NCBI GenBank assembly: GCA_021513695.1
Contig: CP084166.1
Location: 1,568,001-1,632,000, forward strand
DNA: 64,000 nucleotides
Origin: Candidatus Heimdallarchaeum aukensis
GTDB lineage: Archaea > Asgardarchaeota > Heimdallarchaeia > Heimdallarchaeales > Heimdallarchaeaceae
Direction: 5' to 3'
A program made the translations under genes and the position numbers. Below, piece by piece: positions 17,923-60,936 of the stretch. Each line of letters begins with the position of its first letter. Within the stretch, counting starts at the first letter, position 1. The notes beneath the pieces were generated by a model that saw only the letters and a list, made by a program, of their open reading frames with translations, had not been told where the DNA came from and made no database searches.

Positions 17923-18309
17923 TTATTTCCAAACTTTTAGAAACTCTGGCATTTCTTCGAAGTTTACAATTGGTATTGATACGGGCCATCTAGCATCACT
18001 TACTTCATCAGCGAATTCGAACTCTTCCTTTGGACTTGTTCTATATCTTATAAATGATCCTGCAGGAGGTTCATCATTTTCTATCCAGACCACTATTGGA
18101 AGAGCTCTTAAGTTATAGTATCCTAAGCTAGTGTTGAACATGAAAAAAATATTCCTATTCGCTTCTTTTTCATAAAAATATCCAATATAACCAGTCACTC
18201 TATCTGATAAAGTTGAAGCAATGAGTTTTATTATATCTGATAATCCCTTAAGTTTTATTGACGCAGCTTTTTTTATATTATCTACTATTTCATCCATATT
18301 AACCACCAA
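17923..18309 (-). CDS. Hypothetical protein (alpha+beta, 128 aa)
   Basis: ORF only. Predicted long N-terminal helix then beta-rich core. Not recognisably profilin, roadblock or longin. Confidence 0.25.
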   Translation of the reverse strand: MVVNMDEIVDNIKKAASIKLKGLSDIIKLIASTLSDRVTGYIGYFYEKEANRNIFFMFNTSLGYYNLRALPIVVWIENDEPPAGSFIRYRTSPKEEFEFADEVSDARWPVSIPIVNFEEMPEFLKVWK

Positions 18310-18328: not shown

Positions 18329-18634
18329 TTAGAAGATTAATAGAATAGCTACAAGTAGACCATAAATTGCTACTGCTTCAATAAGCACGATGAACAAGAA
18401 GATTTTACCAAAAATCTCTGGTTTTTCAACTAATGCGCCTATACCAGCCGAACCAGCTGAACCCATTCCGAGTGCACTACCGATTCCTGCTAGACCTATT
18501 GCTAGAGCAGCGCCTATAGGTCTCATATCTCCTTCTTCACCTAGAGGAATTTCTGCAGCGAATGTACCTTTTGCGGTTATAATGATAAGCGCAACAATTG
18601 CTAGTAGTCCAATAATCAGATCATTTTTTTTCAT
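18329..18634 (-). CDS. atpK: A/V-type ATPase proteolipid subunit c (K)
   Basis: The ORF track starts at 18730, but the probable start is the internal Met (MKKNDLIIGLLAIV...). GAALAIGLAGIGSALGMGSAGSAGIGA glycine-zipper helix and a second helix with the conserved carboxylate (LIEAVAIYGLLVAILL). Confidence 0.8.
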   Translation of the reverse strand: MKKNDLIIGLLAIVALIIITAKGTFAAEIPLGEEGDMRPIGAALAIGLAGIGSALGMGSAGSAGIGALVEKPEIFGKIFLFIVLIEAVAIYGLLVAILLIF

Positions 18635-18834
18635 AATACGTCCCTTTTTCACGTGTTTAAAATTACAAATCATCGTTTCTTTATTAGTTTTTTGTATTGG
18701 ATACTTTTTAATATTGAATACTTTTTTCAATAAAAAAGTTTTAAGAATAACATATTTTATATTTCATGTATAAGTAAGAAAGCAAACCTATAATAAATGG
18801 GAAAACTTTATGATTATTAAGAAAAGATTCTATC

Positions 18835-19452
18835 GTGAGTAAAATGTTTGGAAACTTTATGAGATGGTTATTAGGAACTCAAAAATCAAGTAGAGACCAT
18901 ATAGTAAACCTTAAACTAACTATTCGCAGACTAGAAAGAGCTCAAAGGAAACTGGAGAGAGATGAATCAAGAATACAACTAAAAATGCGAACAGCTATTC
19001 AGCGTGGTGATTTAGAAGGTGCCCGTCTTTATGCTACAGATATTGTTCGTTCTCGTAAGTGGGTTTTAGGTTACCAGCGTTTAGTTTCTCGTATTAATGG
19101 TCTTATTTTTAAACTAGAACGAGCTGATTCTGCTGCTAACTTGGCAGCTGAAATGCATTCTATTGCAGGAGCTCTTCGACAAGCTAACGCTCAATTAAAT
19201 GTTCCTGATTTAGATCATGTTATTCAAGACATGGAACGTAGTATTGATGGAATTGAGGATTCAACTGAAACAATTGAAGATGGAATTGATGATCTTCTTA
19301 TTGCTGATACCGACCCAGCTGAAGTCGATAGGTTAATTGACCAAACAGCTACAGAGATGGGTGTTAGTGTAGGAGGAGAACTCCCTTCAGTAAGCGCTGT
19401 TGCAACAGACGATCTCGAGGAAGAGATTCAAAAATTAAGGAAAAAAGAGTAA
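18835..19452 (+). CDS. ESCRT-III, Vps2/24/46-like (Snf7 family)
   Basis: 205 aa. Basic N-terminal helical hairpin (RRLERAQRKLERDESRIQLKMRTAIQRGDLEGARLYA) and acidic C-terminal half, the CHMP2/3-like pattern. Immediately upstream of a second Snf7 paralog and Vps4. Confidence 0.8.
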   Translation: MSKMFGNFMRWLLGTQKSSRDHIVNLKLTIRRLERAQRKLERDESRIQLKMRTAIQRGDLEGARLYATDIVRSRKWVLGYQRLVSRINGLIFKLERADSAANLAAEMHSIAGALRQANAQLNVPDLDHVIQDMERSIDGIEDSTETIEDGIDDLLIADTDPAEVDRLIDQTATEMGVSVGGELPSVSAVATDDLEEEIQKLRKKE

Positions 19453-19467
19453 ATATGAGGTGTTTAT

Positions 19468-20127
19468 ATGGGTATGAAAAACTGGTTATTTGGAACCAAA
19501 CGCAAGGATGATGCTGAAGCTTTAGCTACACTCAAAGCTCAGATCAATCGATATGAGCACGAGTCCCGCAATTTAGAACGTCAAGCTGATGAACAAAAAT
19601 CTTTAGCTGCTAAGATGTTAAAGTCGGGTAATAAAGCTGGAGCTAAACAAGCTCTTAAGCGTCGAGCTATTTATATGAAACGTTTAAATCAGGTTCAAAA
19701 TATGCTAATGAACCTTCAGAGTCAGATTGATAGTATTCAAACTGCAACCTCTACTGTTGAAACAGTAAAGGCAATGGAGTTAGGTACGAAAGTTGTCAAG
19801 ACGAAGATGCAAGAAGTTGATGTAGAGAAAACTGAACGTGTAATGGATGAAGTTATGAGTCAACGTGATGAAATTGAAATGATGACAGAAGCTTTATCTG
19901 ATACTGCACTAAGTGAGAGCATTTTAGATTACGAAGATGATGTCGCAATTGATGATCAACTTGCTCAATTAGAAGCCGAGATGAATCTTGGTAAAACAGA
20001 AGAATTACCAGATCTTTCAGATCTTCCTTCAACTCCATCAGAAAAACCGACTGAAAAAGAAGAAGATACTTCTGACCTTGAAGCCGAATTAGCTTCTCTT
20101 AAGAAGAAGTTAAGTGATGACAAATAA
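19468..20127 (+). CDS. ESCRT-III, Vps20/32/60-like (Snf7 family)
   Basis: 219 aa. AKQALKRRAIYMKRLNQ Snf7-like helix, acidic C-terminus with a terminal MIM-like DLEAELASLKKKL. Confidence 0.8.
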   Translation: MGMKNWLFGTKRKDDAEALATLKAQINRYEHESRNLERQADEQKSLAAKMLKSGNKAGAKQALKRRAIYMKRLNQVQNMLMNLQSQIDSIQTATSTVETVKAMELGTKVVKTKMQEVDVEKTERVMDEVMSQRDEIEMMTEALSDTALSESILDYEDDVAIDDQLAQLEAEMNLGKTEELPDLSDLPSTPSEKPTEKEEDTSDLEAELASLKKKLSDDK

Positions 20128-20254
20128 TAATAATCAAATTCTTTTTTCAATTCTTTTTTTCATCATTTTAGAAACGAACAGTTTTTTAACGATAATGATG
20201 TTACTAGTTTAGTAATTCAATTAATAGGATTATTCAGTTAGAGAGGTTAAAGAA

Positions 20255-21400
20255 TTGAGCGCGCAAGGACTGATTGAACACGCACGTAAATTTGCAAAAA
20301 AAGCTTATGAACTTGATAAGGCAAAACAATACAATGAGGCAATACCACTTTATCTCGACGCTGCAGAAGCTCTAATGAAAGCAATAAAATTTGAAAGAAA
20401 TCCACAAGTGGGAAAGACATTAAAGAAAAAAGCAGAGATGTACATTGAACGAGCAAAAGATCTAAAAGAAATTATTGAGAAAAAAGCTGAAAAGGGGGCA
20501 GAAACAGGGTCAGACGAAGAATCTGATAAATTAGAAGGAGCAATTAGCGATATCATAGTTACAGAAAAGCCATCAGTTACTTTGGATGATATTGCAGGAC
20601 TAGAAGAAGCAAAACGGAATCTTCGAGAAGCAATAGTGTTACCTCTTGTAAGACCAGACTTATTTAGTGGTGCAAGAAGACCATGGAAAGGGATTTTACT
20701 TTTTGGCCCCCCAGGATGTGGAAAAACTCTTTTAGCAAAAGCAACAGCTGCAGAAGTAGAAGCTACGTTTTTTAATGTTAGTGCGTCCGCGGTTATATCC
20801 AAATGGTTAGGAGAATCTGAAAAATTAGTTAATACATTATTTAAAATTGCTCGTGAAAGGCAACCAAGTATAATTTTCATAGATGAAGTAGATGCTCTTA
20901 CCGGAGCACGTGGTGGCGAGCATGATGCTATGCGCAGAGTTAAAACTGAATTATTAACTTCTATGGATGGTTTATCTAGCTCTGCTCAAGATCGTCTTGT
21001 AGTTATTGGGGCTACTAACCTTCCTGAGTCTATTGATGGAGCTTTTCGCCGTCGTTTTGAGCGTCGTATTTACATTAAGCTTCCAGATTTTGAAGCGCGT
21101 AAAGCTATCTTTCAACTAAATGTCAAAGGAGTGGACTTAGCTCCCGATGTTGATTTTGAATCTTTAGCAGAGATTACAGAAGGTTATTCTGGAGCAGATA
21201 TTGCTATGGTTTGTCGCGATGCTATTATGACTCCTATTCGTGAACTTGATTTATCAGGAGACATTCATGACCCCAATATTAAAGCCAGACCAGTTACACA
21301 AAAAGATTTTCTTGAGTCTATTCAGTCAGTTAATCCTTCTGTAAGTGCAGAAGAAATCGAGAAATATGAGAAATGGAATGAAGAATTTGGTTCAGCGTAA
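20255..21400 (+). CDS. vps4: Vps4 AAA+ ATPase (MIT domain + AAA module)
   Basis: N-terminal MIT three-helix bundle (AKKAYELDKAKQYNEAIPLYLDAAEALMKA). Walker A GILLFGPPGCGKTLLAKA, Walker B IIFIDEVDAL, second region of homology, and C-terminal Vps4 helix. Confidence 0.95.
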   Translation: MSAQGLIEHARKFAKKAYELDKAKQYNEAIPLYLDAAEALMKAIKFERNPQVGKTLKKKAEMYIERAKDLKEIIEKKAEKGAETGSDEESDKLEGAISDIIVTEKPSVTLDDIAGLEEAKRNLREAIVLPLVRPDLFSGARRPWKGILLFGPPGCGKTLLAKATAAEVEATFFNVSASAVISKWLGESEKLVNTLFKIARERQPSIIFIDEVDALTGARGGEHDAMRRVKTELLTSMDGLSSSAQDRLVVIGATNLPESIDGAFRRRFERRIYIKLPDFEARKAIFQLNVKGVDLAPDVDFESLAEITEGYSGADIAMVCRDAIMTPIRELDLSGDIHDPNIKARPVTQKDFLESIQSVNPSVSAEEIEKYEKWNEEFGSA

Positions 21401-21412
21401 AAGGGTGTTTTT

Positions 21413-21705
21413 ATGATTTACCTTTTTACGTAAGTTTTTCGCACTCGGTCTTTCAAGGGAGAAAACAGGAGTTTCATCACTTGATAACTCAACCACAACA
21501 TACAATGAAAGGAAACGTGGTTAAGACAGACGTCATACACGAATCGTGGGAATCATAAAGAAGGAAAAGAAAAAAGTAAGAAAGGAGAAAAGAAAGGAGG
21601 TTATCTCCTTCTTTATTCTACTTTCTTTTCTTTCCTTCACTCCACGAGAGACGAAAAAACAAACAAATAATCCTCTAACAAGAGAGAATGTAAGTTTATA
21701 TTTTC
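21413..21705 (-). ncRNA. Candidate TnpB omega-RNA (reRNA) scaffold / right-end region
   Basis: Non-coding segment between the tnpB stop and the element terminus. Blocks are conserved with the paralog (e.g. acatacaatgaa...gacagacRtcatacacgaatcgtgggaatcataaagaag and ttccttcactccacgagagac) despite indels elsewhere. Confidence 0.4.
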
Positions 21706-21707
21706 AT

Positions 21708-23161
21708 CTACTGGGGCTGCAACCAATGGCTGAGCCCTTGGCAAACAGTGAAATGAGTGAGACTAAATTTACGACCAGTGAGTAGATCAGTAATAGTTGT
21801 TGCACGGGGGCGGAAAAGAGAACTAAGGAGCAGACGAGCGATATTCATTGCTCCTGTTAGATCAGAGTGGAAGGTGTAATTGCAAGAGGGACAATAAACT
21901 AACCCTCTAACGGGGCGGGTAACTTTTTTTCCGCAACGGGCACAGTGAGATGATGTTCCTCTTTCCTCTATCGTCAGAATTCGGTGAGAGGGAAAACCTC
22001 TAAGTATTAGTGCACGACGGATAAAAGAAAGAACAAGAGCATAGTTCCACTGGTGAAGTTTTCTTCGTGACTTGCGATTAGTTACTCCCTTATTTTTTTC
22101 TCGTCGAATGTATTTAGGATAACCTATAACAACGAAAAGATTATAGATCCGAGCATAAACCTCTATTGTCCACACGATAGCACTTACAAATTGATTGATA
22201 TACGCTCGTCTGACGTTTCTATACCTCCGACGGAGACGTTTGAGAAAACGGTAAACTTGGTGTTTTTTACCCGATTGGTCGTTTAAAGCTGCTTTCCTCT
22301 GAAGACGGGAAAGTTTGAGTTTATATCGATGATTAACTTTATTCCACTGTTTGGTATACTAGAACTTTATTTCTTTACTTGTTACCTTCTTTTTCGGGGT
22401 CAGTAGCACTTCTACCGCAGGAATGTTTATCCCTAGATCTATTCCCAGCACAGCTGGGGGAAGAAAAGAAGAGTCAGAAGAAAGATTATCTCCCTGAAGG
22501 AAAGAAGAAGGAAGAACTTTTGAATGAAAATATATCCACCATTCACGTGTAGAACGTTTGTATCTTATTTCTAAACTTTTTACTCTTTCTTTAATTCTTT
22601 TTGATGAAACTCGCTCATCTCTAAAGGTAACCACAATCGCTGATGAAAACGTGTTTTTCTTTTCCACCTATCTAACGAGTCTCGTATTCCTACCCACCAA
22701 CGAGAAAGAGTGTTATTCTTATCTTTTGGTAGATGGACGAGGATGAACCTTTTTTTATTAATTAATTGTCTTCTTGCTCTCTTTCTTGGAGGACGAGTAT
22801 TGTTAGGTCTATATCCTTGCTCATATAGTTGCACAGCTATATCTCTACATTCTTGAAACTCATCGTGAGAACAATAGGGAAACATTTTCTTCATATCGTG
22901 AGGAACAGTCGTTCTTCTTTCTTCCTCTTTTTTTACTCTCGAGGTCGTTAATGTCAATTCGTCTAATTTTCCTTTATGTACTTTTATTTTCCCTTCTTTT
23001 GCTTTAATACCTATTTTTTTTCTGTTATGGTGTATAATTCTCACATACTTTTCTATTATTCTAGTATCTCTCCCCGTTATTCTCCTTAACTTTTCTTTTT
23101 TTCTCGTCGTCAATACTTCATTCTTCACTCTCACCTTTAACGTTTTGACGACGTCCTCCAT
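21708..23161 (-). pseudogene. tnpB: tnpB pseudogene (frameshifted; fragments 22580-23161, 22359-22667, 21708-22175)
   Basis: Three ORF fragments in different frames together cover the 484-aa intact paralog, from the N-terminus MEDVVKTLKVRVKNEV... to the C-terminus ...HCARCGKKV...CPSCNYTFHSDLTGAMNIA. At least two frameshifts were seen. Confidence 0.75.
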
Positions 23162-23240
23162 CCTTTTTTTCTCCTCTTATTTTACTCTCTCTTTTTTTCT
23201 ATTTTTTTCTCTTCTTTTACTTCTTCTCTTCCTCATTATA

Positions 23241-23260
23241 CTTTTTTTCCCTATAAAAAG
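23241..23260 (-). promoter_or_regulatory. Candidate TATA box for tnpB inside the left end (reads TTTTTATAGGG on the coding strand)
   Basis: The motif ctttttttccctataaaaag is conserved in both paralogous elements (also 34681-34698). A related tttttttcctatataaa lies upstream of the third tnpB (63559-63578). Confidence 0.3.
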
Positions 23261-23329
23261 TCCTTTCTTTTCTTTTTTTCTCATTATTCTTCCTCAATTT
23301 TTATATAAAGTTATGTAAAATAGTAAATC

Positions 23330-24130
23330 ATGGCTACAATGGAAAAACAAAAAGATAATGAATTTGAGCAAATTGATCTTGAAAAATTGAAAGAAGAAAA
23401 GAAAATATCAGAAGATAAGCTTAAGCTTATTGAAGCCAGTATTAAGGGATTAAAAGTTTCAGAAGAAGAACTGAAGTCCACGAAACCTATTGTTAGAGAA
23501 GAAGCAAGATTAGAACTAACAGAAGACACAAAGACGAAGCTAATTAAAGAATTTGAGCAAAGTTTACCTGATTGGGTTAACAAGCCTTGGATGTATGTCA
23601 CCCCAAAAAAGGCAAATCAAGTTGAGTCTTGGTTAGACAGTTGGTCATCAGTCATGCTTGATTATACAAAGAAATTTGTTATTCATATTGTTAATGTCAA
23701 TTCTCTTAGAGAAACTTATCCTTTTTGTAATAAGAAAATAAGAAAAGAACTTACCATCGATCAAATTCGTGATATCATCGATTTTCTTGAAACAAAGGGT
23801 TTTGCTCTTTGGATAAATGATAGGACAAAATTCTTTGAGAAACTTTTTGCAAAGATACTTGGAAAACCTTTAACAAAAAAGATCCGTGCAAAGATAGAAT
23901 GGAAAACAAAAGAAGAATTTGCTGAAGATTTACTTAAATGGATGATTGAAACCGGTAGAGTAGTTGAAGTTCACTCTTTATATGATTTAACAAAATATGA
24001 ACAACCCTGGTCTTCTTTACCTTCAGATGATTTAATCCATGTATGCAATTTACTCGTAGAAAAAGGTTCTGCTAGATGGTTAAATAGAGAAAGAACTATA
24101 ATTTCCTTTGAAGCAACAAAGGTATTCTAA
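23330..24130 (+). CDS. ESCRT-II Vps25-like protein (tandem winged helix) with an N-terminal charged coiled-coil extension
   Basis: PFCNKKIRKELTIDQIRDIIDFLETKGFALWINDRTKFFEKLF matches the Vps25 WH1 pattern (LF.N..I.R.L....I..IL..L...G.AEW). The second WH is GRVVEVHSLYDL...LIHVCNLLVEKGSARWLN. The annotated ATG overlaps the IS terminus; the real start may be the next Met. Confidence 0.65.
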   Translation: MATMEKQKDNEFEQIDLEKLKEEKKISEDKLKLIEASIKGLKVSEEELKSTKPIVREEARLELTEDTKTKLIKEFEQSLPDWVNKPWMYVTPKKANQVESWLDSWSSVMLDYTKKFVIHIVNVNSLRETYPFCNKKIRKELTIDQIRDIIDFLETKGFALWINDRTKFFEKLFAKILGKPLTKKIRAKIEWKTKEEFAEDLLKWMIETGRVVEVHSLYDLTKYEQPWSSLPSDDLIHVCNLLVEKGSARWLNRERTIISFEATKVF

Positions 24131-24183
24131 CTTTAATTTTTATTTTAATTTTATTTATTTACTATTTTTTGTGATGTAATGCT

Positions 24184-24621
24184 ATGTTTAAAAATTATAT
24201 ATTGAATAGACTTTTGAGATTTATGTCTTTAGACGATGAAGAATTACAAAGGATTCGAGAAAAAAAGGCACAACAACTTAGGCAAATTTTAGAACAGAGA
24301 AAATCAAAAATGGAACAACTTAAACAAGAGGAAACAGCGCCAAAAAGCATTACAAAAGAGGACAAGTATCGTTTAATGAATTATTTTCTAACTGATGACG
24401 CTTTTTCTTATTGGAAGAGTCTATATGAAAATCCACAAAAGCATAATACAGCAGAAACAATTTTCATTAATTTGCTCTATCTGATTAAGATTGGTTTTAT
24501 GGAAGGAAAACTTATCTCTCTTCTAGGAATTAAAAAATTAGAAAGAAAAATAGATAATATTCCTTCTAAAATCACAATAAAGAGAAAAGGAGAAAAAGAA
24601 AGATCCAAAGTTTTGGATTAA
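24184..24621 (+). CDS. PDCD5/TFAR19-like dsDNA-binding family protein
   Basis: LDDEELQRIREKKAQQLRQILEQRKSK... N-terminal helix and a C-terminal ...LLYLIKIGFMEGKLISLLGIKKLERKIDN...ITIKRKGEKE pattern typical of PDCD5-like proteins. Confidence 0.45.
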   Translation: MFKNYILNRLLRFMSLDDEELQRIREKKAQQLRQILEQRKSKMEQLKQEETAPKSITKEDKYRLMNYFLTDDAFSYWKSLYENPQKHNTAETIFINLLYLIKIGFMEGKLISLLGIKKLERKIDNIPSKITIKRKGEKERSKVLD

Positions 24622-24697
24622 TAATTGACTTTTACTTATTAGGTTACATTTATTTAGGATAATGAAAATAAAGTATTAGAAAGGAGCTGATGGATAA

Positions 24698-24934
24698 ATG
24701 AAGTTGAGTATTGTTACCGCAATAGGAGGAGGTCTTTTAGAATTAGATGTTGATAGCCATCAAACAATTGCACAACTTAAAAGAGAAGTTTCAAGAATTA
24801 AAAAGATACCTGCAAATACAGTTATTTTGGTTCATCATGGTCAACAGTTAGATGATGGTGAAACAATTAAGAGTTGCGGATTACAAGAAGGAGATAAACT
24901 CTATCTAATTGCAAGAACAAAAGGTGGACTTTAG
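24698..24934 (+). CDS. Ubiquitin-like beta-grasp protein with C-terminal Gly-Gly
   Basis: 78 aa, ends ...ARTKGGL. Embedded next to an E1-like gene and ESCRT genes. Confidence 0.75.
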   Translation: MKLSIVTAIGGGLLELDVDSHQTIAQLKREVSRIKKIPANTVILVHHGQQLDDGETIKSCGLQEGDKLYLIARTKGGL

Positions 24935-25009
24935 CTTTTCTATTTCAAAATTTTTTTAGAAGAATAGAAACTGTTTTATTACTTCTAAAAGATATTTTTG
25001 TGAAAGTGG

Positions 25010-26014
25010 ATGTCTAAAGAAGGTAGATATGCGAGACAGACTCTCATACCTGGTTGGAATCAGAAGAAACTCAACAAATCAACAGTTATTATTGTTGGTG
25101 TGGGAGCAATTGGATCATATGTATCAACGATTTTAGCTTCTTCAGGAGTAAAAAATCTCATTCTAATTGATTTTGATACTATTGAAATCTCTAATCTTAA
25201 TCGTCAATTACTATTTCGGGATGGAGATATTGGAAAATCCAAATCTGAAATTGCAGCTATGCGATTATCGGAACTAAATCCAGATATTAACATTACCTTT
25301 CATCATAAGAAGATGCAAGATTTACCTATTTCTATTTACAAAAAAGCAGATGTCATTGTGGCTTGTCTTGATACCTTCATTGGAAGAAGATGGATAAATT
25401 CACTTGCTGTAAAAATAAACAAACCTTTAATTTTAGGTGGAATGTTTGCTTTTCTAGGAGATGTTCAAGTTGTTTTACCAAAAAAAACTGCTTGCTTTGA
25501 TTGTCAACCTTTAGTTGCAGAAAGAGAACTTGCGCAAGCTTGTACTCCATTCGGAGAAGAAAGGAAGAAAAACAGAGAAGAAAAAGAGGATGAAGCGAAA
25601 TTACCATCTGTAGCCACATTGTCTGCGATTATCGGAGGAATTATGGCACAAGAAGCCTTAAAACTTCTTTTAGACATAGGTGAACCAATCAAGAATTATC
25701 TTTTCTATGATGGATTACATAATGCAACAACAATAATTGAACTTGCAAGAAGAAAAAAAGATTGTCCAACTTGTGGAGAACTATATGAGTTGGAACAAGT
25801 CGAATTTGTGGTAAATAAAGATAATACCGTCAAAGAACTATTAATCCAATTAGGTTTACAATTCGGACTTGAGAGCCCAGACATTATGATTAAAGGGAGG
25901 ATACTCCCTCACGATTCAAAAATCCAAGAACTAGGTATAAAAAATAACATGAAGGTTTTTGTAATGGACAAAAATTTAGCTTCACCAATCAAGTTAAAGT
26001 TAAAGATTGAGTGA
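25010..26014 (+). CDS. E1-like ubiquitin-activating enzyme (ThiF/MoeB/UBA family) with a C-terminal beta-grasp-like tail
   Basis: Rossmann nucleotide motif VGVGAIGSYV, ...LIDFDTIEISNLNRQ..., zinc knuckles CFDCQ and CPTCG, and a candidate catalytic Cys in a QACTP context. Confidence 0.85.
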   Translation: MSKEGRYARQTLIPGWNQKKLNKSTVIIVGVGAIGSYVSTILASSGVKNLILIDFDTIEISNLNRQLLFRDGDIGKSKSEIAAMRLSELNPDINITFHHKKMQDLPISIYKKADVIVACLDTFIGRRWINSLAVKINKPLILGGMFAFLGDVQVVLPKKTACFDCQPLVAERELAQACTPFGEERKKNREEKEDEAKLPSVATLSAIIGGIMAQEALKLLLDIGEPIKNYLFYDGLHNATTIIELARRKKDCPTCGELYELEQVEFVVNKDNTVKELLIQLGLQFGLESPDIMIKGRILPHDSKIQELGIKNNMKVFVMDKNLASPIKLKLKIE

Positions 26015-26025
26015 AAAAAGAAAAT

Positions 26026-26751
26026 TTAGGTGTGTGACAGTCCAGGGAAATAATATTTAGTTCCTTCAGCATAGGAACTATCTACTCTTGCTATACCATT
26101 TTCTTCAAAAAATGATAAGCAACGATTAATTCTTTCCTCTGCCCACCCTGTTCTAAGTAATAGATCTTCTTTTGTTACAAATCCTGTTCTTGAAGCAATG
26201 TTTAATATTACATCATGGTCGGGACTGAATTCAACAGGAGCAAATTCTACTAGTTTCACTCCAGATTCTAAAACTTTGAAAGGTGGAATTAATTTTGAAT
26301 TTATGAGTTTCTCTAATGAACGATACAAGTCATCAATTGTAACTAGTTTTCCAGGTCTAGTTTTATTTAATTGGGTAAACAATTCACCTACAGACATTAT
26401 ACCTCCATTTTCTTCTATAAGTTTTTGACCCAAATCCATGATTTCGTTTGCTAAAACATCATAGAAACCTTTTCCTGTTAATCTATCTTTTAGAGTTGGA
26501 GCTTCTTTCCATTCATATCTCCCTATTTCTGTAGGTAAGCCTAGTTCTTCTCGCAGGCCAGCAAGTTTTTCATAATATTCTTTATTTTCAACTATTTTAT
26601 CACCATATTTCTTTTCAAATTTCTTTAGTTGCTTTTTAACTTGTTTAATATTTTCCAACATTTGTTCTAATTCTTTTATCATTAATTCGGCTTCTTTAAC
26701 TTGGAAAGCTGACTTCACTTTTAATTTCTTTTCAATATCTCTTAAGCCCAA
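26026..26751 (-). CDS. ESCRT-II Vps22/Vps36-like (EAP30 family) tandem winged-helix protein
   Basis: GGIMSVGELFTQLNKTRPGKLVTIDDLYRSLEKL and ...TKEDLLLRTGWAEERINRCLSFFEENGIARVD match the EAP30 WH1/WH2 patterns. Confidence 0.75.
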   Translation of the reverse strand: MGLRDIEKKLKVKSAFQVKEAELMIKELEQMLENIKQVKKQLKKFEKKYGDKIVENKEYYEKLAGLREELGLPTEIGRYEWKEAPTLKDRLTGKGFYDVLANEIMDLGQKLIEENGGIMSVGELFTQLNKTRPGKLVTIDDLYRSLEKLINSKLIPPFKVLESGVKLVEFAPVEFSPDHDVILNIASRTGFVTKEDLLLRTGWAEERINRCLSFFEENGIARVDSSYAEGTKYYFPGLSHT

Positions 26752-26823
26752 CTTTAATCACTATTTTTTATTTGTCAGTGAGATATAAAAAATATACTAT
26801 TTAATTTCGCAATTAGCTTAGAG

Positions 26824-27132
26824 TTAAAAAAGGAGAGGAAGTCTTCTAATCCACTCTTTAATTGAATTCATAAGCTTTTTAGATTCATTTGGAGGAAGAA
26901 AAGCTGCTAGTTTGTCTTTATAGTTTTTGTATAGTTTTTGATAAACGCTGTCCATTTCATCAACAATTGAATCATTTACCAAATTGATTTTTTTAACAAG
27001 ATGTTTTATCTCTTCCAACTCTTCTAAGATGTATGAACAGTCAATTTTTATTTCTAAGAGATCCATCAACTCGAATAAACTATCTTTTGCTTTATTATAG
27101 GTATTTTCTAAAGATTTTCTCCTAGAAATCAT
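26824..27132 (-). CDS. Small all-helical protein, candidate Vps28 C-terminal-domain-like ESCRT-I component
   Basis: 102 aa predicted helical bundle, located between the Vps23-like and Vps22/36-like genes on the same strand. Assignment is by context only. Confidence 0.3.
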   Translation of the reverse strand: MISRRKSLENTYNKAKDSLFELMDLLEIKIDCSYILEELEEIKHLVKKINLVNDSIVDEMDSVYQKLYKNYKDKLAAFLPPNESKKLMNSIKEWIRRLPLLF

Positions 27133-27168
27133 GTTTACTCCTCTAAAAAGGCTGGATAAAAGATAGGA

Positions 27169-28638
27169 CTACATATCTTTTAAAATTCGTCTAAATTCGT
27201 TTAACCATCTTGATGCTTGGAATTCTAGTTTTTCACAATCGTCTTCATTTATTATTTCACTTGGTTTATAATTTGAAAGAATGTCTTTCCAGTTTTTCAT
27301 ATCGCTGAGCATCCAATGATCTTGCGGAATAGATGGAAACGAGTGCAAAACATGAATTAGCTCTTCTACGTCAGCCAACAGCAAATCAGCTCGTGCGACT
27401 GATTTAAGCCTTGTTAGATCAATTAATTCAATTGCAGCTGAAACAAAATCAGCTGTTTTTACAGGCATTTTCTTTAAGGATTCAAATGGTATCATTTCAA
27501 CATCTTTAGTTCCAGTTCCTTCAGCCATTTGTAGCAATCTCATTCCTTTGTCAAATCTATTTAGCAGATTTTCTTGCTCTATAAACGAATCGAGATCAAA
27601 TCCACCTAATTGTTCCAGTTTCATTCTTGTTTTGAAAACTGTTCTTATTAGTGATCTTAACTGCTTTTTATATGCAACTTGCTCAATCTCACCATTTTCA
27701 TACCCTCTCGCTAAATTATCTAATGTCACTATTGCTGCATATAAATCAGCTTCAAAATCTAATCTTTTATCTAAATCACTAGGCATTACTTGTCCTCCAA
27801 CATTTTCTAAATAAGCTAATTTTTTATTTGTCTTATAACTTTCCACTGAATATTTTCTATAAAGTTTCAAGTAATCAACACTTGAAAGATCTCCATCATC
27901 AAATTTCTCATTTAATAGCTCTAATAAGTCATTAGATGCTCTTGAACTTGCTTTTAAATCATCGGTTACAGAAATTGTAAGTTCTTTTAATGAATGTGAA
28001 GGCTCAGCTTTCTTGATTAGAGCAGCTCTTTTTTCCTCAATTTGTTTATTTAGTTCGTTTATCTGCTGCTGATACGCTTCTATCTCTGCTTCAATAGTAC
28101 TTTTTTCTATCGATGTTTGACTCCGTTCATTAAAGGATGGTACACTTTGCTTACGTACAGTGTGACGTGAAACTGTTCTTGGTTTCATCGGTTGAACTAC
28201 AGATCTAGACACACTCCTAGCTGTAGACATATGCTTTGTTCTTAATGGTCTTGCAGGAACATTAGCAAATAATCGCCGAATATCATTTATAACTTGATAA
28301 ATATGATAGCGTGGTTTCCATTGAGCGAGTATTTGCAAACTAAGAAAGTCATTGTCGTCAACATTAGGATGATTTACTTTAGGAGTAATTTCAACTTGAG
28401 GAGGAATTCTTGGGAACTCTGGAGAGATATATATTGTAGCATAAACAGTTATCTTCGTTCCTTGAATTATCCCTACAGGGCCTTTCCACTTTCTTAAATT
28501 GCCTCCTACTGGCTCAAATCCTTCAACATTATTATAAATTAATTGCATCTCATTAGCAAGAATCTGATCTAGAGAAATTTGTCTCACCTTTACTCTTCTA
28601 TTATTGTTATAAACTTCAAAGTTTAAAAAATATTGCAT
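27169..28638 (-). CDS. ESCRT-I Vps23/Tsg101-like protein with N-terminal UEV (inactive E2) domain
   Basis: N-terminal UBC fold with an HPN motif (KVNHPNVDDNDF...LQILAQWKPRYHIYQVINDIRRLF) but no catalytic Cys after it, which makes it a UEV domain. Followed by a Pro/Ser-rich linker, a long coiled-coil stalk and a C-terminal helical domain. Confidence 0.7.
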   Translation of the reverse strand: MQYFLNFEVYNNNRRVKVRQISLDQILANEMQLIYNNVEGFEPVGGNLRKWKGPVGIIQGTKITVYATIYISPEFPRIPPQVEITPKVNHPNVDDNDFLSLQILAQWKPRYHIYQVINDIRRLFANVPARPLRTKHMSTARSVSRSVVQPMKPRTVSRHTVRKQSVPSFNERSQTSIEKSTIEAEIEAYQQQINELNKQIEEKRAALIKKAEPSHSLKELTISVTDDLKASSRASNDLLELLNEKFDDGDLSSVDYLKLYRKYSVESYKTNKKLAYLENVGGQVMPSDLDKRLDFEADLYAAIVTLDNLARGYENGEIEQVAYKKQLRSLIRTVFKTRMKLEQLGGFDLDSFIEQENLLNRFDKGMRLLQMAEGTGTKDVEMIPFESLKKMPVKTADFVSAAIELIDLTRLKSVARADLLLADVEELIHVLHSFPSIPQDHWMLSDMKNWKDILSNYKPSEIINEDDCEKLEFQASRWLNEFRRILKDM

Positions 28639-28729
28639 TCAAAAAAAAGAGTCTTTTCTTGAGAAAAAAATATATGAAAAAAAATTGATTATAATTCTAA
28701 ATTACAATAGAACCTAGGAATAAACTCTT

Positions 28730-29272
28730 TTACTTTCTATTTTTGACTAAAAGTGTAGCTAGTTTCACAAATGCTTCTTGAACATGTTCTCCTGTAAGTG
28801 CACTTGTTTTTATGAAATCCAAACTATTGATTTTGTTTTGTAATGATTTACATTCATCATCTGATACAGCAATTTTATCTTCTAAATCATTTTTATTTCC
28901 AACTAAGATGGTAAGGGTGTTCTTTCCACAGTTTTTAACAAGTTCAGAGTTCCATTTCTCTAGATCAGTTAGTGTTGAATTCCTGGTTAAATCGAAAACC
29001 ATCAGTGCTGCTTTTGCTCCTTTAAAGAAAGTATGTCTTATAAACCTAAATCTATCTTGTCCTGCTAGATCCCAAATTGAAAGAGCTACAACTGTATTGT
29101 CCTCTAATGTAACAAATTTCTCACTCGGTTCCATACCTATTGTCATCAGATAACTTTGTTCAAAACGATTATGAACAAAACGTTGTACAAGAGATGTCTT
29201 TCCTACAGCGGCGGCACCTAATAGAAGTATTTTGAAATTGAAATCAGGACGAATTGAACGCATTATTCTCAA
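28730..29272 (-). CDS. Ras-superfamily small GTPase, Rab-like
   Basis: G1 GAAAVGKTSL, G3 WDLAGQDRF (compare Rab WDTAGQERF), G4 GNKNDL, G5 TSAL. 180 aa with no lipidation-style tail inspected. 91 bp upstream of the Vps23-like gene on the same strand. Confidence 0.9.
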   Translation of the reverse strand: MRIMRSIRPDFNFKILLLGAAAVGKTSLVQRFVHNRFEQSYLMTIGMEPSEKFVTLEDNTVVALSIWDLAGQDRFRFIRHTFFKGAKAALMVFDLTRNSTLTDLEKWNSELVKNCGKNTLTILVGNKNDLEDKIAVSDDECKSLQNKINSLDFIKTSALTGEHVQEAFVKLATLLVKNRK

Positions 29273-29275
29273 CTT

Positions 29276-29572
29276 TTACATTTTTTTTGCTTTTACAAGC
29301 TCTTCTTTTAAACTTTTAAGATAGTATGTTTCAAAATTTTCTTCTGCGCGTTTAATAGTAGTAAGAGAAATACAGAGATCTAATATGAATTCATATTGTT
29401 CTTTTTTCTCTTTCTGTGGTTTGAATGCTTTAAATTTTTTTAATAAATACTCGGCTAACTTTGACGCTTCTTTTTTTGTTAATGTTCCTTGCTCATATAA
29501 ATTAATAATTAACTCCATTTTCTCTATAGTAATATCATTGTTAATCTCTTTTAACGACAAAATTTTACTCAT
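29276..29572 (-). CDS. Hypothetical helical protein translationally coupled to the Rab-like GTPase gene
   Basis: 98 aa. Its stop is 3 nt before the GTPase start. Confidence 0.3.
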   Translation of the reverse strand: MSKILSLKEINNDITIEKMELIINLYEQGTLTKKEASKLAEYLLKKFKAFKPQKEKKEQYEFILDLCISLTTIKRAEENFETYYLKSLKEELVKAKKM

Positions 29573-29791: not shown

Positions 29792-30499
29792 ATGACAAAA
29801 AAAACAATACTTGCTTGTTTTGCCCATCCTGATGATGAATTGGGTTGTGTTGGAACATTAGCAAACCATGCAAAAAATGGAGATAGAGTTGTAATTGCAT
29901 GGACTACTAGTGGTGAGATGGCTTCTTTTTTTGAAGGGATGAGTTTTGAAGAAGTAAAAGATATTAGAGAAAAACAAGGAAGAGAAATCGGTAAAATCAT
30001 AGGAAGTAATGTAGAAACTATTTTCTTAGGTTATGGTGACACAGAAGTCATTCCTACTAGGGAAAATGCTATTAAAATGGCAAAAATAATTGCTAAAATT
30101 AAGCCAGATGCCGTTATTAGTTGGGGATTTAATAATCGACACCCAGATCATAGAGGAACAGTACAATTATTGTATGATGCTATGACATATGCTAGAATCC
30201 CAAGAATAACAAGTCCTGACCCTCCTCACAGACCTCCATTTCATATACCCATGTTCTTATATTATGAGAAAATCAGCCCTTTACGAACAGTTTACGTAGA
30301 TATTAGTGAAACTTATCCTCAGGTAGAAAAAGCGTTTAGACTTTACGCTGATTTCTATGGATGGTCGGTAAGTGATTGGATTCATGTAAGAAGAAGAACA
30401 GATGGAATGGATTGCGGAGTAAAATTCGCAGAGAAATTTAATGTTTTTTCAAGATATGAGCCATATTCATCTTTATTACCAATAAATAATGATGCATAG
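29792..30499 (+). CDS. LmbE/PIG-L family N-acetylglucosaminyl deacetylase
   Basis: CFAHPDDELGCVG and HPDH zinc-binding motifs. Confidence 0.8.
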   Translation: MTKKTILACFAHPDDELGCVGTLANHAKNGDRVVIAWTTSGEMASFFEGMSFEEVKDIREKQGREIGKIIGSNVETIFLGYGDTEVIPTRENAIKMAKIIAKIKPDAVISWGFNNRHPDHRGTVQLLYDAMTYARIPRITSPDPPHRPPFHIPMFLYYEKISPLRTVYVDISETYPQVEKAFRLYADFYGWSVSDWIHVRRRTDGMDCGVKFAEKFNVFSRYEPYSSLLPINNDA

Positions 30500-30538: not shown

Positions 30539-31162
30539 TTATTTTTCATCATCAGTTTGCTTCTCTTCTTTTTCTTCTTCATTTTCTTCTTCAAAGAAGT
30601 CATCATCAAACATTAATACACTGTCTAAAACAGAGTCAAGGGAAGGTCTTTCAGGAGGAGTTAATGGTATATCTGCTTTATCTGCAACAGAAATATCTAA
30701 AGATGAAAGATCTGCTCTCGCTCTTCTTCTCGTTGTTGGAGTCGTACTAACATATTGAATATTCTTTAACATTGATTTAACAGAACTGATTTCTTCTTTC
30801 AAATCTTTCAGAGAACTGAGTGCATTAATTTTTTCTAAAAGCTCATCTACTTTCTCTAACTCTCTTTTGGTTTTCTCTTCAAACTTTTTACTTGTTTCAG
30901 TTATCTTTGCAAACTGGCCTTCAGTTATGTTTATTCTTCTAGGAATTGAGGGTTCAGTGGGTGGAAAAAACAATGCAGGAGATGCTTTTAATTCTTCAAG
31001 AGAACCAAATTTTTCACTATGGTGTGCCTTGATTGACGCAAGAATTGCAGTTATAGGGTTTCCATATTCCGTCATTAAATCTTCAATCATATCCCATATT
31101 GCTATAGGAATTGGTACTTCTATTATTCTAGCTATCCTTTGCTTCTTTTTTTGAGAATACAT
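30539..31162 (-). CDS. Hypothetical protein: possible N-terminal ribbon-helix-helix-like segment, coiled coil, and strongly acidic C-terminal tail
   Basis: KQRIARIIEVPIPIAIWDMIEDLMTEYG... then a helical region, ending ...MFDDDFFEEENEEEKEEKQTDDEK. Confidence 0.3.
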   Translation of the reverse strand: MYSQKKKQRIARIIEVPIPIAIWDMIEDLMTEYGNPITAILASIKAHHSEKFGSLEELKASPALFFPPTEPSIPRRINITEGQFAKITETSKKFEEKTKRELEKVDELLEKINALSSLKDLKEEISSVKSMLKNIQYVSTTPTTRRRARADLSSLDISVADKADIPLTPPERPSLDSVLDSVLMFDDDFFEEENEEEKEEKQTDDEK

Positions 31163-31397: not shown

Positions 31398-31670
31398 TTA
31401 TGCAGTGTCTGTTACTTTGCTTTCTTCTTGTAGGAACTCAAAAGTTTCACGTAACTCAGGAGCTAAGTAATAATAGACCGACCGCATATCTGATAGATTA
31501 GACATTTTCTTTAAAATGCCTTTTTCTAGAAGGCGTCTAATACCATAACGAACTGTTCGTTCTGGTTGTTCTACAGATGCTAAGATCTGTTTCTGTGTCA
31601 TTGGTCCTTTTTCGTCCAATACTTTTATTATATCTTCTCCGCCTCGGGGTAATTTTCGTCTTTTCATCAT
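31398..31670 (-). CDS. Small winged-helix DNA-binding protein (putative transcriptional regulator)
   Basis: 90 aa. MTQKQILASVEQPERTVRYGIRRLLEKGIL is an HTH plus wing pattern. Confidence 0.5.
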   Translation of the reverse strand: MMKRRKLPRGGEDIIKVLDEKGPMTQKQILASVEQPERTVRYGIRRLLEKGILKKMSNLSDMRSVYYYLAPELRETFEFLQEESKVTDTA

Positions 31671-32912: not shown

Positions 32913-33171
32913 ATGATTTACTTTTTTCCGTAAGTTTTTCGCACTCGGTCTTTCAAGAGAGAAAAACAATAAAATAGCTTAATCGCTTGGTAACTCAACC
33001 TAAACATACAATGAATGGGAGTGGTTGAGACAGACATCATACACGAATCGTGGGAATCATAAAGAAGAAAGGAAGAAAAAAGTAAAACCTTTTTTCTTTT
33101 TTCCTTCACTCCACGAGAGACAAAAAAGAAAGACTAACTCTAACACAAGAGGATAGAATTAGTTTCTTTTC
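32913..33171 (-). ncRNA. Candidate TnpB omega-RNA scaffold / right-end region
   Basis: Conserved with 21413-21705 (see there). Lies 3' of the tnpB stop and runs to the element terminus. Confidence 0.4.
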
Positions 33172-33173
33172 GT

Positions 33174-34628: not shown

Positions 34629-34947
34629 CTTTCTTTCCTCTTTTCTTATTCTAAACTTTTTTCTTCTCCTTTAATTATACTTTTTTTCCCTATAAAAATT
34701 CCTCACTTTTTCTTCTCTCCCTCCCTCTTCCTTCCTTCTTTCCTTTCTTTTTTCGTTGCACTCTTCCTCAATTTTTATAAATTTACGTAAAAAAGTAAGT
34801 CATTTATTATGCTTTTCTTTAAAGTTTTTACAGTAAGTGCTGAATGTTTCTATTTCATTTATCCCTGAAAGAGGACAATAGTATAAAAAAGTGTAAAAAA
34901 CAATAATTAAGAAAATATTTATAGTTTAACAAAAATAAAAAACATCA

Positions 34948-55790: not shown

Positions 55791-55913
55791 TATAGACTTA
55801 AAAAAAATCTTTTTCTTTTCTTATAGATTCTATCATTTTACTTGGAACTTAAAAAAATGAATATTCAATCTTTTTCCAAAACATTTTTTTGCTCTTACTG
55901 ACAAGAATAAACA

Positions 55914-56846: not shown

Positions 56847-56882
56847 TTTTACTTTTTAATTATTGAAAAAATAAAAAAATGA

Positions 56883-58073: not shown

Positions 58074-58134
58074 GTTATTTTATTTGAAAGTTACACATTA
58101 AAAAAACTTAAAACAATATCAAAAAAGTTATCTT

Positions 58135-59936: not shown

Positions 59937-59946
59937 GAGAATACCT

Positions 59947-60903: not shown

Positions 60904-60936
60904 TACTCCTCACTGTCAATAAAGTAATATAGTGTT

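Follow-up and report, generated by a model that had tools for sequence, protein, structure and literature searches.

A ubiquitin-ESCRT gene cluster has been studied biochemically from Heimdall AB_125. Its UEV-Vps23-Vps28 fusion protein (HeimAB125_14070) binds ubiquitin and dimerizes, its Vps22 (HeimAB125_14050) forms a homodimer, and yeast two-hybrid assays revealed an interaction between ESCRT-I and Vps22; E2 candidates are encoded elsewhere in that genome (Hatano et al. 2022, PMC9192718). In addition, some Asgard genomes reportedly carry a separate gene for Vps28-C (Makarova et al. 2024, PMC11188069).

We examined a stretch of 64,000 nucleotides of the Candidatus Heimdallarchaeum aukensis chromosome (hereafter the window). 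It is very probable that the region at 18835-29572 (Table 1) is the vertically inherited chromosomal ubiquitin-ESCRT cluster of this organism, orthologous to the AB_125 cluster, with the mechanism and history proposed below. Orthology and synteny connect it to AB_125 and to at least 30 Heimdallarchaeaceae loci. A preliminary description made from the sequence alone had listed twelve open reading frames, all of which are present at the positions and on the strands given there. Its reading of them as ubiquitin and ESCRT genes agrees with Pfam searches, in which only matches above curated cut-offs were counted and which recovered both ESCRT-III subtypes, Vps4, Vps25, a Vps22/36-like protein, a UEV-containing ESCRT-I protein, ubiquitin, E1, and a Rab-like GTPase. 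The actin gene (44868-46004, E=3e-132), the roadblock gene (39867-40247), and the AT-rich composition (GC content ∼0.31-0.38 across the whole window) were likewise borne out. The assignment to Asgard archaea stands, and the lineage can be narrowed to Heimdallarchaeaceae, to the exclusion of Lokiarchaeia.

Table 1. Features of the H. aukensis ubiquitin-ESCRT region and its syntenic neighbors (positions in the window).
Feature	Position	Strand	Profile evidence
ESCRT-IIIA (Vps2/24/46-like, Snf7 family)	18835..19452	+	Pfam Snf7 71 bits, E=1.2e-19
ESCRT-IIIB (Vps20/32/60-like, Snf7 family)	19468..20127	+	Pfam Snf7 93.8 bits, E=1.2e-26
Vps4 AAA+ ATPase	20255..21400	+	Pfam MIT, AAA, AAA_lid_3 and Vps4_C, each above cut-off
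Insertion element, decayed TnpB gene	21413..23329	-	TNB domain E=4e-10
Vps25 (ESCRT-II)	23330..24130	+	Pfam ESCRT-II 59 bits, E=6.6e-16
p132, divergent protein with predicted PDCD5 fold	24223..24621	+	
Ubiquitin	24698..24934	+	Pfam ubiquitin 51 bits, E=1.1e-13
E1-like ubiquitin-activating enzyme	25010..26014	+	Pfam ThiF 218 bits, E=1.3e-64
Vps22/36-like ESCRT-II subunit	26026..26751	-	Pfam EAP30 81 bits, E=1.4e-22
p102, free-standing Vps28 C-terminal-domain-like four-helix bundle	26824..27132	-	
ESCRT-I UEV-Vps23-Vps28 fusion, 489 aa	27169..28638	-	Pfam UQ_con 45.5 bits, VPS28 45 bits
Rab-like small GTPase	28730..29272	-	Pfam Ras 154 bits, E=3.6e-45
p98, small protein directly upstream of the Rab-like gene	29276..29572	-	No Pfam family
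PIG-L deacetylase, syntenic neighbor, relevance uncertain	29792-30499	+	Pfam PIG-L
p207, syntenic neighbor, relevance uncertain	30539-31162	-	
90-aa winged-helix protein, syntenic neighbor, relevance uncertain	31398-31670	-	Pfam HTH_24

The genes form two convergent runs, with the stop codons of E1 and Vps22 only 11 bp apart. Both Snf7 proteins match ESCRT-III proteins, as the preliminary description proposed. The best PDB matches of ESCRT-IIIA are CHMP1B, CHMP1A, CHMP2A, and Vps24; ESCRT-IIIB matches the AB_125 ESCRT-IIIB structure (PDB 9ftl, E=3.2e-93), followed by yeast Snf7. ESCRT-IIIA is 94% identical to its orthologue at locus L004, and its start may lie a few codons 3′ of the GTG. The corresponding identity for Vps25 is 75%, and the Vps22/36-like protein is 78% identical to AB_125 Vps22.

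The preliminary description called the ESCRT-I gene a UEV-domain Vps23-like gene. The UEV assignment holds, and the fuller identity is the UEV-Vps23-Vps28 fusion known from AB_125, with which the protein shares 51% identity. Its layout comprises a UEV domain (UQ_con, residues 47-139), a coiled-coil stalk, a Vps23 steadiness box (Vps23_core, residues 227-268, at 24.7 bits slightly below the cut-off), and the Vps28 N-terminal and C-terminal domains (VPS28, residues 297-486). In an alignment with UBE2D2, a serine stands opposite Cys85. Among 44 family sequences, all retain the HPN motif, 41 carry serine at the catalytic-cysteine position, and none has cysteine there. From this sequence pattern, the UEV domain is predicted to be an inactive E2 fold.

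The gene set of AB_125, including the small unannotated genes, is shared: the fusion, two ESCRT-III paralogues, Vps4, Vps25 (HeimAB125_14040), Vps22, ubiquitin, and E1 are all present, with identities of 51-78%. The order of the blocks differs. In H. aukensis, p132, ubiquitin, and E1 lie between Vps25 and Vps22, and the pair of p98 and the Rab-like gene directly adjoins ESCRT-I. The locus of Ca. Heimdallarchaeum endolithica PR6 (CP084167.1, L008), the sister species, is 95% identical overall, is colinear at 88-94% DNA identity, and has the same rearranged order, with the Rab-like gene beside ESCRT-I. It differs in having an additional ∼1.2 kb of sequence that separates the ATP-synthase c gene from Snf7A. 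The canonical array of the family places PIG-L, p207, and the winged-helix gene together with p98 and Rab, upstream of the ubiquitin-ESCRT block.

The preliminary description overlooked a 1.9-kb element that breaks the run of + strand genes between Vps4 and Vps25, positioned exactly at the Vps25 start codon. Its TnpB gene is in two fragments (23161-22601 and 22592-21708), with a frameshift and an in-frame stop. The element has imperfect terminal inverted repeats of ∼21 bp with AT flanking both sides, and alignment of the ends places the insertion point in the AT of the start codon. A related copy at 32913-34801 in the window encodes an intact 484-aa TnpB and is 80.5% identical as DNA over 1.9 kb. 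The H. endolithica locus lacks the element. Its empty site reads TAA-AGAGGTGATTAT-ATG, a 12-nt Vps4-Vps25 spacer that contains GAGGTGA, and the Vps25 N-terminus is the same in both species; the AB_125 gap is 17 bp. An assembly artefact is unlikely since a second assembly reproduces the same insertion junction.

The ubiquitin ends in ...RTKGG-L, and orthologues have zero or one residue past the GG. The adjacent E1 has a ThiF-fold adenylation domain followed by a C-terminal ubiquitin-like domain of ∼75 aa (Pfam Ubiquitin_5 at 7e-4 over residues 271-321), which resembles the ubiquitin-fold domain by which eukaryotic E1s recruit E2. It also carries a conserved cysteine in AQAC(T/S)PFG and two conserved CxxC motifs (CFDC and CPTC). 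Paired CxxC zinc motifs of this kind are typical of MoeB/ThiF. Their retention, the lack of an E2 in the window, and top NCBIfam matches to MoeB/ThiF and SAMP-activating UbaA models would suit a sulfur-carrier or SAMP-like system (MoaD/ThiS with MoeB/ThiF) rather than eukaryote-type ubiquitin activation feeding ESCRT. However, all of those matches score well short of their curated cut-offs (145 bits versus 266-449), whereas among solved structures UBA3 (4e-38) and UBA1 (2e-34) match best, with ThiF and MoeB behind. The small protein matches Pfam ubiquitin and not ThiS or MoaD, and the ubiquitin-like domain of E1 also argues against sulfur transfer, as do the adjoining UEV protein, given ubiquitin binding by its AB_125 orthologue, and the E2 candidates located elsewhere in the AB_125 genome (PMC9192718). 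A sulfur-carrier system is thus highly improbable, and ubiquitin activation is the preferred reading. Pfam searches of the other window ORFs of at least 90 aa, together with six-frame tblastn and a motif scan of the window, yielded no E2, JAB/MPN deubiquitinase, or RING protein, as had been observed for E2 and deubiquitinase. This feature is not specific to the locus, as once supposed, since the canonical Heimdallarchaeaceae array also holds only ubiquitin and E1. With no E2, E3, or deubiquitinase gene in it, the window does not show a complete cascade.

Two further alternatives concern the small proteins. p102 resembles the Vps28 C-terminal domain as a stand-alone four-helix bundle, and the comparison with this domain proposed in the preliminary description gave matches by both Foldseek and profile-profile alignment. 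It does not pass the Pfam VPS28 model, and p102 could instead be an unrelated generic bundle, for example a YtzH-family homologue, with no evolutionary or functional tie to Vps28. We regard this as somewhat unlikely. YtzH scores below the cut-off and is matched by only three of 10 family members, whereas three Vps28 C-terminal-domain chains head the Foldseek ranking of 350,542 chains. The profile match falls exactly on the Vps28-C region of the fusion, in register over 87 columns (z≈6 versus shuffles); the Vps28-N region gives z=-0.3, and a p98 control is at background. The gene also keeps its place between ESCRT-I and Vps22 in 30 of 34 loci. Like the Vps28-C genes reported previously (Makarova et al. 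2024, PMC11188069), it encodes a stand-alone protein of ∼100 aa, lies beside a gene with full Vps28, and is co-directed with vps22 and vps23/28; it differs in failing the Pfam model. As a Vps28-C-like protein, p102 is probably an extra connector between ESCRT-I and ESCRT-II or a regulator.

The Rab-like gene ends 91 bp ahead of the ESCRT-I start, as first described, but the same order in H. endolithica means that the adjacency is not specific to this locus. All top 60 PDB matches of the protein are Rabs (best, Thorarchaeota Rab 7ezb, 3.9e-37); it has no C-terminal cysteine, and its probable start is the ATG at 29263, giving 177 aa. The GTPase and p98 might be functional parts of an ESCRT-I module, in which case the move to 91 bp upstream created or reflects co-expression. 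p98 is always directly upstream of the Rab-like gene, and of 18 informative Heimdallarchaeaceae loci, 17 have the pair upstream of ESCRT-I. This linkage survived the Heimdallarchaeum rearrangement, during which the pair drew closer, and a Hodarchaeia Ub/UEV-Vps23 cluster reportedly includes a Rab-like GTPase as well. In most species, however, the pair is 3-8 kb from ESCRT-I, with PIG-L, p207 (on the opposite strand), and the Ub/E1 block between them, and at one locus (L006) the distance is ∼10 kb and the surrounding genes differ. Unrelated genes, that of the ATP-synthase c subunit among them, are equally syntenic, so the linkage could be plain synteny conservation within one family. p98 may form a hairpin like that of Vps28-N or the steadiness box, but the similarity is marginal: yeast Vps28 N-terminal constructs top the PDB matches of its family profile at E≈0.02, and alignment to the Vps28-N region of the fusion (hhalign) gives z=2.2, a score reached by two of 60 shuffles, neither being significant. 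A shared ESCRT-I module is therefore unlikely.

The ORF of p132 was listed with 145 aa, but translation most likely begins at Met14 (24223), so that the protein has 132 aa, the length found in every orthologue. Its structural model, of moderate confidence (pLDDT 72), has the PDCD5 fold, which upholds the earlier PDCD5-like guess at the fold level. The sequence signal is below significance and, unlike PDCD5/TFAR19 members (SSO0352, human PDCD5, and yeast Ymr074c), p132 has diverged too far to be placed in the family by Pfam or NCBIfam. In nearly all informative loci, its gene directly precedes that of ubiquitin. Our literature search found no paper naming Asgard, PDCD5, and ubiquitin together, and no earlier report of p132 beside ubiquitin.

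Compared with the eukaryotic multivesicular-body pathway, the cluster shares a UEV ubiquitin receptor, a steadiness-box headpiece, Vps28, winged-helix ESCRT-II subunits, two ESCRT-III classes, and a Vps4 with MIT and Vps4_C domains. In contrast, Vps23 and Vps28 are joined in one chain, a single Vps22/36-like gene replaces separate Vps22 and Vps36, no Vps37, Mvb12, or ESCRT-0 is recognisable in the cluster, the UEV keeps HPN with serine at the catalytic position, and an additional Vps28-C-like protein is encoded. By analogy with domain homologues and with the published biochemistry of the AB_125 orthologues (51-78% identical), E1 would adenylate ubiquitin once the single residue past GG is removed, and then form a thioester. 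E2 and E3 enzymes from elsewhere in the genome would place ubiquitin on cargo, where the catalytically dead UEV of the fusion would bind it. The Vps28 part would link to a Vps22 homodimer and Vps25, Vps25 would nucleate ESCRT-IIIB, ESCRT-IIIB would recruit ESCRT-IIIA, and Vps4 would take the polymer apart. The Vps28-C-like p102 between ESCRT-I and Vps22, p132 paired with ubiquitin, and p98 paired with the Rab-like GTPase are conserved parts of this neighborhood.

The locus was very probably reshuffled in an ancestor of both sequenced Heimdallarchaeum species, which brought the p132-Ub-E1 block to its place between Vps25 and Vps22 and put p98 and Rab immediately beside ESCRT-I. Later, in H. aukensis only, a TnpB-carrying element very probably entered the Vps25 start codon, uncoupling Vps25 from Vps4, and has decayed since. 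The core finding of an Asgard ubiquitin-ESCRT cluster is correct but already known from AB_125. What the H. aukensis locus adds is local detail only: a mobile-element insertion, a shuffle of gene order, and three small conserved partner genes.

The preliminary description read this region as an Asgard-type ubiquitin-ESCRT gene cluster. This reading is right, since both ESCRT and ubiquitin families were recovered. All of the ORFs named there are found at the positions and on the strands assigned to them, and Pfam searches return the expected families with scores above the curated cut-offs (see table). The two Snf7 domains score 71 and 93.8 bits (cut-off 27.3), and the translated proteins have acidic C-terminal tails. 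The first protein (Snf7A, ESCRT-IIIA) is nearest to CHMP1B, CHMP2A, and Vps24. The second (Snf7B, ESCRT-IIIB) best matches the ESCRT-IIIB structure 9ftl (E=3e-93) from AB_125, a Heimdallarchaeota relative whose cluster has been studied, and then yeast Snf7. The nearest characterized homologs therefore agree with the subtypes proposed earlier, Vps2/24/46-like for the first protein and Vps20/32/60-like for the second. Vps4 carries MIT (52.3 bits), AAA (144.6), AAA_lid_3 (54.3), and Vps4_C (48.4) domains, each above its cut-off. Winged-helix domains are recovered in Vps25 (ESCRT-II, PF05871; 59.2 bits, cut-off 27) and in the Vps22/36-like protein (EAP30, PF04157; 80.9 bits, cut-off 26.8). An Rfam match to the C/D-box RNA SNORD36 at 19239-19313 (+), within the Snf7A coding sequence, is probably due to chance (31.9 bits, gathering threshold 30, E=0.38).

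Features of the ubiquitin-ESCRT cluster and its surroundings (window positions)
Feature	Position	Strand	Basis
ATP-synthase c subunit gene and 128-aa protein	17923-18309 and 18329-18730	-	
Snf7 proteins	18835-19452, 19468-20127	+	Pfam
Vps4 with MIT, AAA, lid, and Vps4_C	20255-21400	+	Pfam
TnpB element, decayed copy	21413-23329		
Vps25/ESCRT-II	23330-24130	+	Pfam
p132, small unannotated protein	24223-24621	+	
Ubiquitin	24698-24934	+	Pfam
E1, ThiF fold	25010-26014	+	Pfam
EAP30/Vps22-36	26026-26751	-	Pfam
p102, small unannotated protein	26824-27132	-	
E2-fold and VPS28 protein (ESCRT-I fusion)	27169-28638	-	Pfam
Ras-superfamily GTPase	28730-29272	-	Pfam
p98, small unannotated protein	29276-29572	-	
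p207, 207-aa protein	30539-31162	-	
90-aa winged-helix protein	31398-31670	-	
TnpB element, intact copy	32913-34801		
V-type ATPase subunit I homolog	41278-44406	-	
DegT/p310/NAD-kinase and aminotransferase/EamA/phosphoglycerate mutase genes	54642-62172		
Third TnpB-family gene	62247-63545	-	

The two runs of genes converge with their stop codons 11 bp apart. As previously noted, 91 bp separate the end of the GTPase gene from the ESCRT-I gene downstream. A scan of the remaining large ORFs in the window confirms the presence of actin, roadblock, and thermosome genes and of genes for V-type ATPase subunits. One of the latter, a subunit I homolog, is unusually long (1042 aa); its best Pfam match covers residues 487-791 only, which leaves a long N-terminal part unassigned. 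The reported absence of an E2 or deubiquitinase also stands: These ORFs include no E2, JAB/MPN, or RING protein, and a six-frame tblastn search and motif scan of the window detected no second E2, JAMM motif, or second ubiquitin.

The homologs bear out the assignment of this replicon to the Asgard archaea and place it in the Heimdallarchaeaceae rather than the Lokiarchaeia. Among 48 homologs of the 489-aa ESCRT-I protein, including HeimAB125_14070 of AB_125, every one with a named source is from Heimdallarchaeota except one from a MAG filed under Bathyarchaeota. The copy in the sister species Ca. H. endolithica is 95% identical. The only other exceptional phylum label is that of one species-genome locus filed under Thorarchaeota, and a lokiarchaeial origin was rejected because all named homologs but those of these two MAGs are from Heimdallarchaeota and because p132 and p102 match Ca. 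H. aukensis proteins exactly. The Ca. H. aukensis genome itself is circular (Wu et al. 2022; PMC8813620). The term "island" could be taken to imply horizontal transfer. GC content is uniform between the cluster and its flanks, however, and synteny is kept throughout the family, which indicates a conserved chromosomal cluster and not a mobile island.

The ubiquitin protein has a Pfam beta-grasp domain (51.2 bits, cut-off 25.4) and ends in RTKGGL, and its orthologs end in GG, GGL, or GGN. Among PDB matches of the E1, UBA3 (4e-38) and UBA1 (2e-34) rank ahead of ThiF (5e-32) and MoeB (1e-26) by a small margin. In NCBIfam the E1 matches MoeB/ThiF models, but far below the equivalog cut-offs for MoeB, ThiF, and UbaA (at best 145 bits, where 266-450 are required). 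It carries a ubiquitin-like domain at the C terminus, and a conserved, putatively catalytic Cys lies in the motif AQAC(T/S)PFG; further Cys motifs are conserved as well.

The ESCRT-I gene had been described as a UEV-domain Vps23-like gene. The UEV domain is indeed present (UQ_con/UEV, residues 47-139, 45.5 bits), but the description is incomplete because the protein also contains a full VPS28 domain (residues 297-486, 45 bits against 24.5, profile positions 2-188 of 188). Between these domains, Vps23_core at residues 227-268 scores just below its cut-off (24.7 vs. 26.8 bits); this family is annotated on most homologs of the protein. The fusion is 51% identical to HeimAB125_14070 across 95% of its length. 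A 2023 preprint limits UEV-Vps23-Vps28 fusions to certain Heimdallarchaeia genomes, and the purified AB_125 protein binds ubiquitin and dimerizes (Hatano et al. 2022; PMC9192718). Both properties are known for the AB_125 ortholog only and would apply here by analogy. A Ser of the fusion aligns with Cys85, the catalytic residue of UBE2D2. Ser also stands at this position in the best PDB matches, which thus appear to be C85S mutants. Because Ser takes the place of the catalytic Cys and the HPN motif is invariant across 44 family members, it seemed conceivable that ESCRT-I is charged by the E1 via an oxyester on this residue. Ser is found in 41 of these proteins and Cys in none, and covalent charging is unlikely because the other three have A, K, or N.

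We compared gene order at the loci of AB_125 and two closer relatives and at 34 loci from species-representative genomes. The canonical Heimdallarchaeaceae array reads wHTH - p98 - Rab - p207(-) - PIG-L - p132 - Ub - E1 - ESCRT-I - p102 - Vps22 and converges on Vps25 - Vps4 - Snf7B - Snf7A, beyond which lies the ATP-synthase c subunit gene. Vps25 and Vps22 flank the p132-Ub-E1 block in the window, and Rab adjoins ESCRT-I. Ca. H. endolithica has the identical order, colinear with the window at 88%-94% DNA identity, and therefore the reshuffle took place before these two Heimdallarchaeum species diverged. Two features that had been called specific to this locus are not. The adjacency of Rab and ESCRT-I is the same in Ca. 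H. endolithica, and none of the loci compared has an E2 or deubiquitinase gene in the array.

Four sub-blocks are kept through the rearrangement: Snf7A-Snf7B-Vps4-Vps25, ESCRT-I-p102-Vps22, p132-Ub, and p98-Rab. Their retention points to the three small unstudied proteins p132, p102, and p98 as candidate partners of the machinery. Other genes keep company with the cluster. p207, which is without a family, accompanies p98-Rab in most loci that reach far enough upstream, as does the 90-aa winged-helix protein, which is 81%-91% identical to its orthologs in AB_125 and the relative's locus L004. The ATP-synthase c subunit gene and the gene for a 128-aa protein without a family flank the Snf7A end in most Heimdallarchaeaceae loci reaching that far. 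These two genes show that conserved linkage alone is no proof of function in this family. The ATP-synthase c gene and Snf7A are 52 bp apart in the window, and in Ca. H. endolithica (locus L008, 18018-19207) the gap is larger by ∼1.2 kb of additional DNA, which may be another mobile-element insertion. In AB_125 and L004, DegT/p310/NAD-kinase genes flank one side of the ESCRT neighborhood. The other side is formed by aminotransferase/EamA/phosphoglycerate mutase genes in AB_125 and by UbiA and thermosome genes in L004. In the window, the DegT and aminotransferase groups are joined directly together, indicating that the whole ubiquitin-ESCRT block is located elsewhere on the Heimdallarchaeum chromosome.

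The Vps4 and Vps25 genes are separated in the window by a mobile element. This 1.9-kb stretch is 80.5% identical to a second copy in the window that contains an intact 484-aa TnpB-family gene; the copy within the cluster is decayed by a frameshift and a stop. The intact gene is divergent (NF040570, 74.7 bits vs. a cut-off of 100), with a TNB domain above cut-off, and neither copy of the element has a transposase gene. Each copy is bounded by imperfect terminal inverted repeats of ∼21 bp (ATGATTTACYWTTTTACRTAA), with AT on either side. IS200/IS605-type carriers of TnpB normally lack inverted repeats and target duplications, and the terminal repeats of both copies are atypical in this respect. 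The insertion fell in the AT of the Vps25 start codon; the ATG was regenerated, and the Vps25 reading frame is intact. The element is cleanly missing from H. endolithica, where the Vps4-Vps25 junction is TAA-AGAGGTGATTAT-ATG, and the gap between the two genes is 15-211 bp in other loci. A Logan assembly contig that ends inside both copies reproduces the junction, although it may share the same sequencing reads. Within the element end, ∼26 bp upstream of the Vps25 ATG, is a TATA-like TTTATATA (23300-23307) that, we infer, might now serve as a promoter for Vps25 and, downstream of it, p132-Ub-E1. The third TnpB-family gene of the window (432 aa; NF040570, 129.8 bits) is ∼25% identical to the 484-aa gene and unrelated to the two copies, and its neighbors are genes that in AB_125 are found beside the ESCRT cluster.

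The p102 family is narrow, with 10 cluster representatives in an exhaustive HMMER search, and a word-indexed homology search found nothing besides p102 itself. The protein is predicted with high confidence (pLDDT 93.8) to form a four-helix bundle. Three chains of the Vps28 C-terminal domain (CTD) rank top among 350,542 chains in Foldseek (TM 0.73-0.78). When the p102 profile is compared with that of the whole 489-residue fusion family, the best match coincides exactly with the Vps28 CTD (residues 396-486). It scores 30.9, compared with 14.4±2.7 for column shuffles, and none of 200 shuffles reaches this value. The match is also domain-specific (z=5.4 against the CTD, -0.3 against the N-terminal domain). 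In the comparison with the Vps28 CTD suggested in the preliminary description, the predicted bundle superimposes, and the profile similarity is to a bona fide CTD. None of the 10 members matches Pfam VPS28, even at E≤10. A competing resemblance to YtzH (PF14165) stays below the gathering threshold (25.8 vs. 27 bits), and just three of the 10 members match. Of the 34 loci, 30 contain p102, and the four without it are the most divergent. In three of these (L036, L038, and L039), Vps22 comes directly after the fusion gene or ∼15 bp downstream, and in L037 it lies elsewhere. A separately encoded Vps28 CTD is an already known pattern, since some Asgard genomes have such a gene beside a full vps28 (Makarova et al. 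2024; PMC11188069). By locus-tag numbering, the AB_125 ortholog would be HeimAB125_14060, which is unmentioned in Hatano et al. (PMC9192718).

The earlier guess that p132 is PDCD5-like holds at the level of fold. It has no Pfam match at E≤0.1, and its match to the archaeal PDCD5-type NCBIfam PRK04239 is weak and nearly full-length (16 bits, cut-off 98). The family HMM found only SSO0352 in the PDB, which is not significant (E=6), and BLASTP with human PDCD5 also gave no significant match. Membership in PDCD5/TFAR19 (PF01984) at the sequence level was therefore rejected. Several orthologs are labeled TFAR19/PDCD5 family by JGI. Only the fold and the sub-threshold NCBIfam match suggest a link to PDCD5.

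The GTPase scores 153.9 bits with Pfam Ras, and its 60 best PDB matches are all Rabs, a Thorarchaeota Rab being first. G1 (GAAAVGKT), G3 (DLAGQ), and G4 (NKND) motifs can be read from its sequence. The protein ends in LLVKNRK and lacks a C-terminal prenylation Cys, so we term it Rab-like rather than a true Rab of the eukaryotic type. Eighteen loci include 4.6 kb or more of upstream flank, and in 17 of these the p98-Rab pair precedes ESCRT-I, at distances of 128 bp to 8.2 kb. p98 belongs to no family in Pfam or NCBIfam searches. The four best PDB matches of its profile, all constructs of one protein, are yeast Vps28 N-terminal headpieces (E≈0.02), and its similarity to the Vps28-N region of the fusion is marginal (z=2.2; two of 60 shuffles reach the score). 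Comparisons with Vps23-core (z=0.1), Vps28-C (z=1.3), and p102 (13.3 vs. a shuffle mean of 11.8) are at background, and these relationships were rejected. The marginal resemblance to Vps28-N may serve as a lead only. It seems improbable that p98 is a third, free-standing hairpin beside the Vps23-core and Vps28-N steadiness-box hairpins of the fusion, and hence an analog of the "missing" Vps37. If this long shot proved correct, then p98 would complete a eukaryote-like three-hairpin ESCRT-I headpiece. In the closest archaeal relatives of eukaryotes, small-GTPase switching would then have a direct link to the recruitment of ESCRT-I, because the p98 gene is translationally coupled to the Rab-like gene and linked to the cluster across Heimdallarchaeaceae.

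Asgard ubiquitin-ESCRT clusters are central to ideas on the origin of eukaryotic membrane trafficking. The existence, composition, and core biochemistry of the Heimdallarchaeia cluster are already published, and by analogy its mechanism can be transferred from the AB_125 work. Novelty here is confined to a second, rearranged order of the same parts; a mobile-element insertion that divides the ESCRT-III/Vps4/Vps25 operon; and quantified conservation of the PDCD5-fold protein, the Vps28-C-like protein, and p98-Rab as companions of the cluster in Heimdallarchaeaceae. These are no discovery in themselves, but they give useful leads to groups that already study the AB_125 proteins. The insertion provides a natural experiment in which a mobile element separates Vps25 from the ESCRT-III/Vps4 operon and leaves the gene undestroyed.
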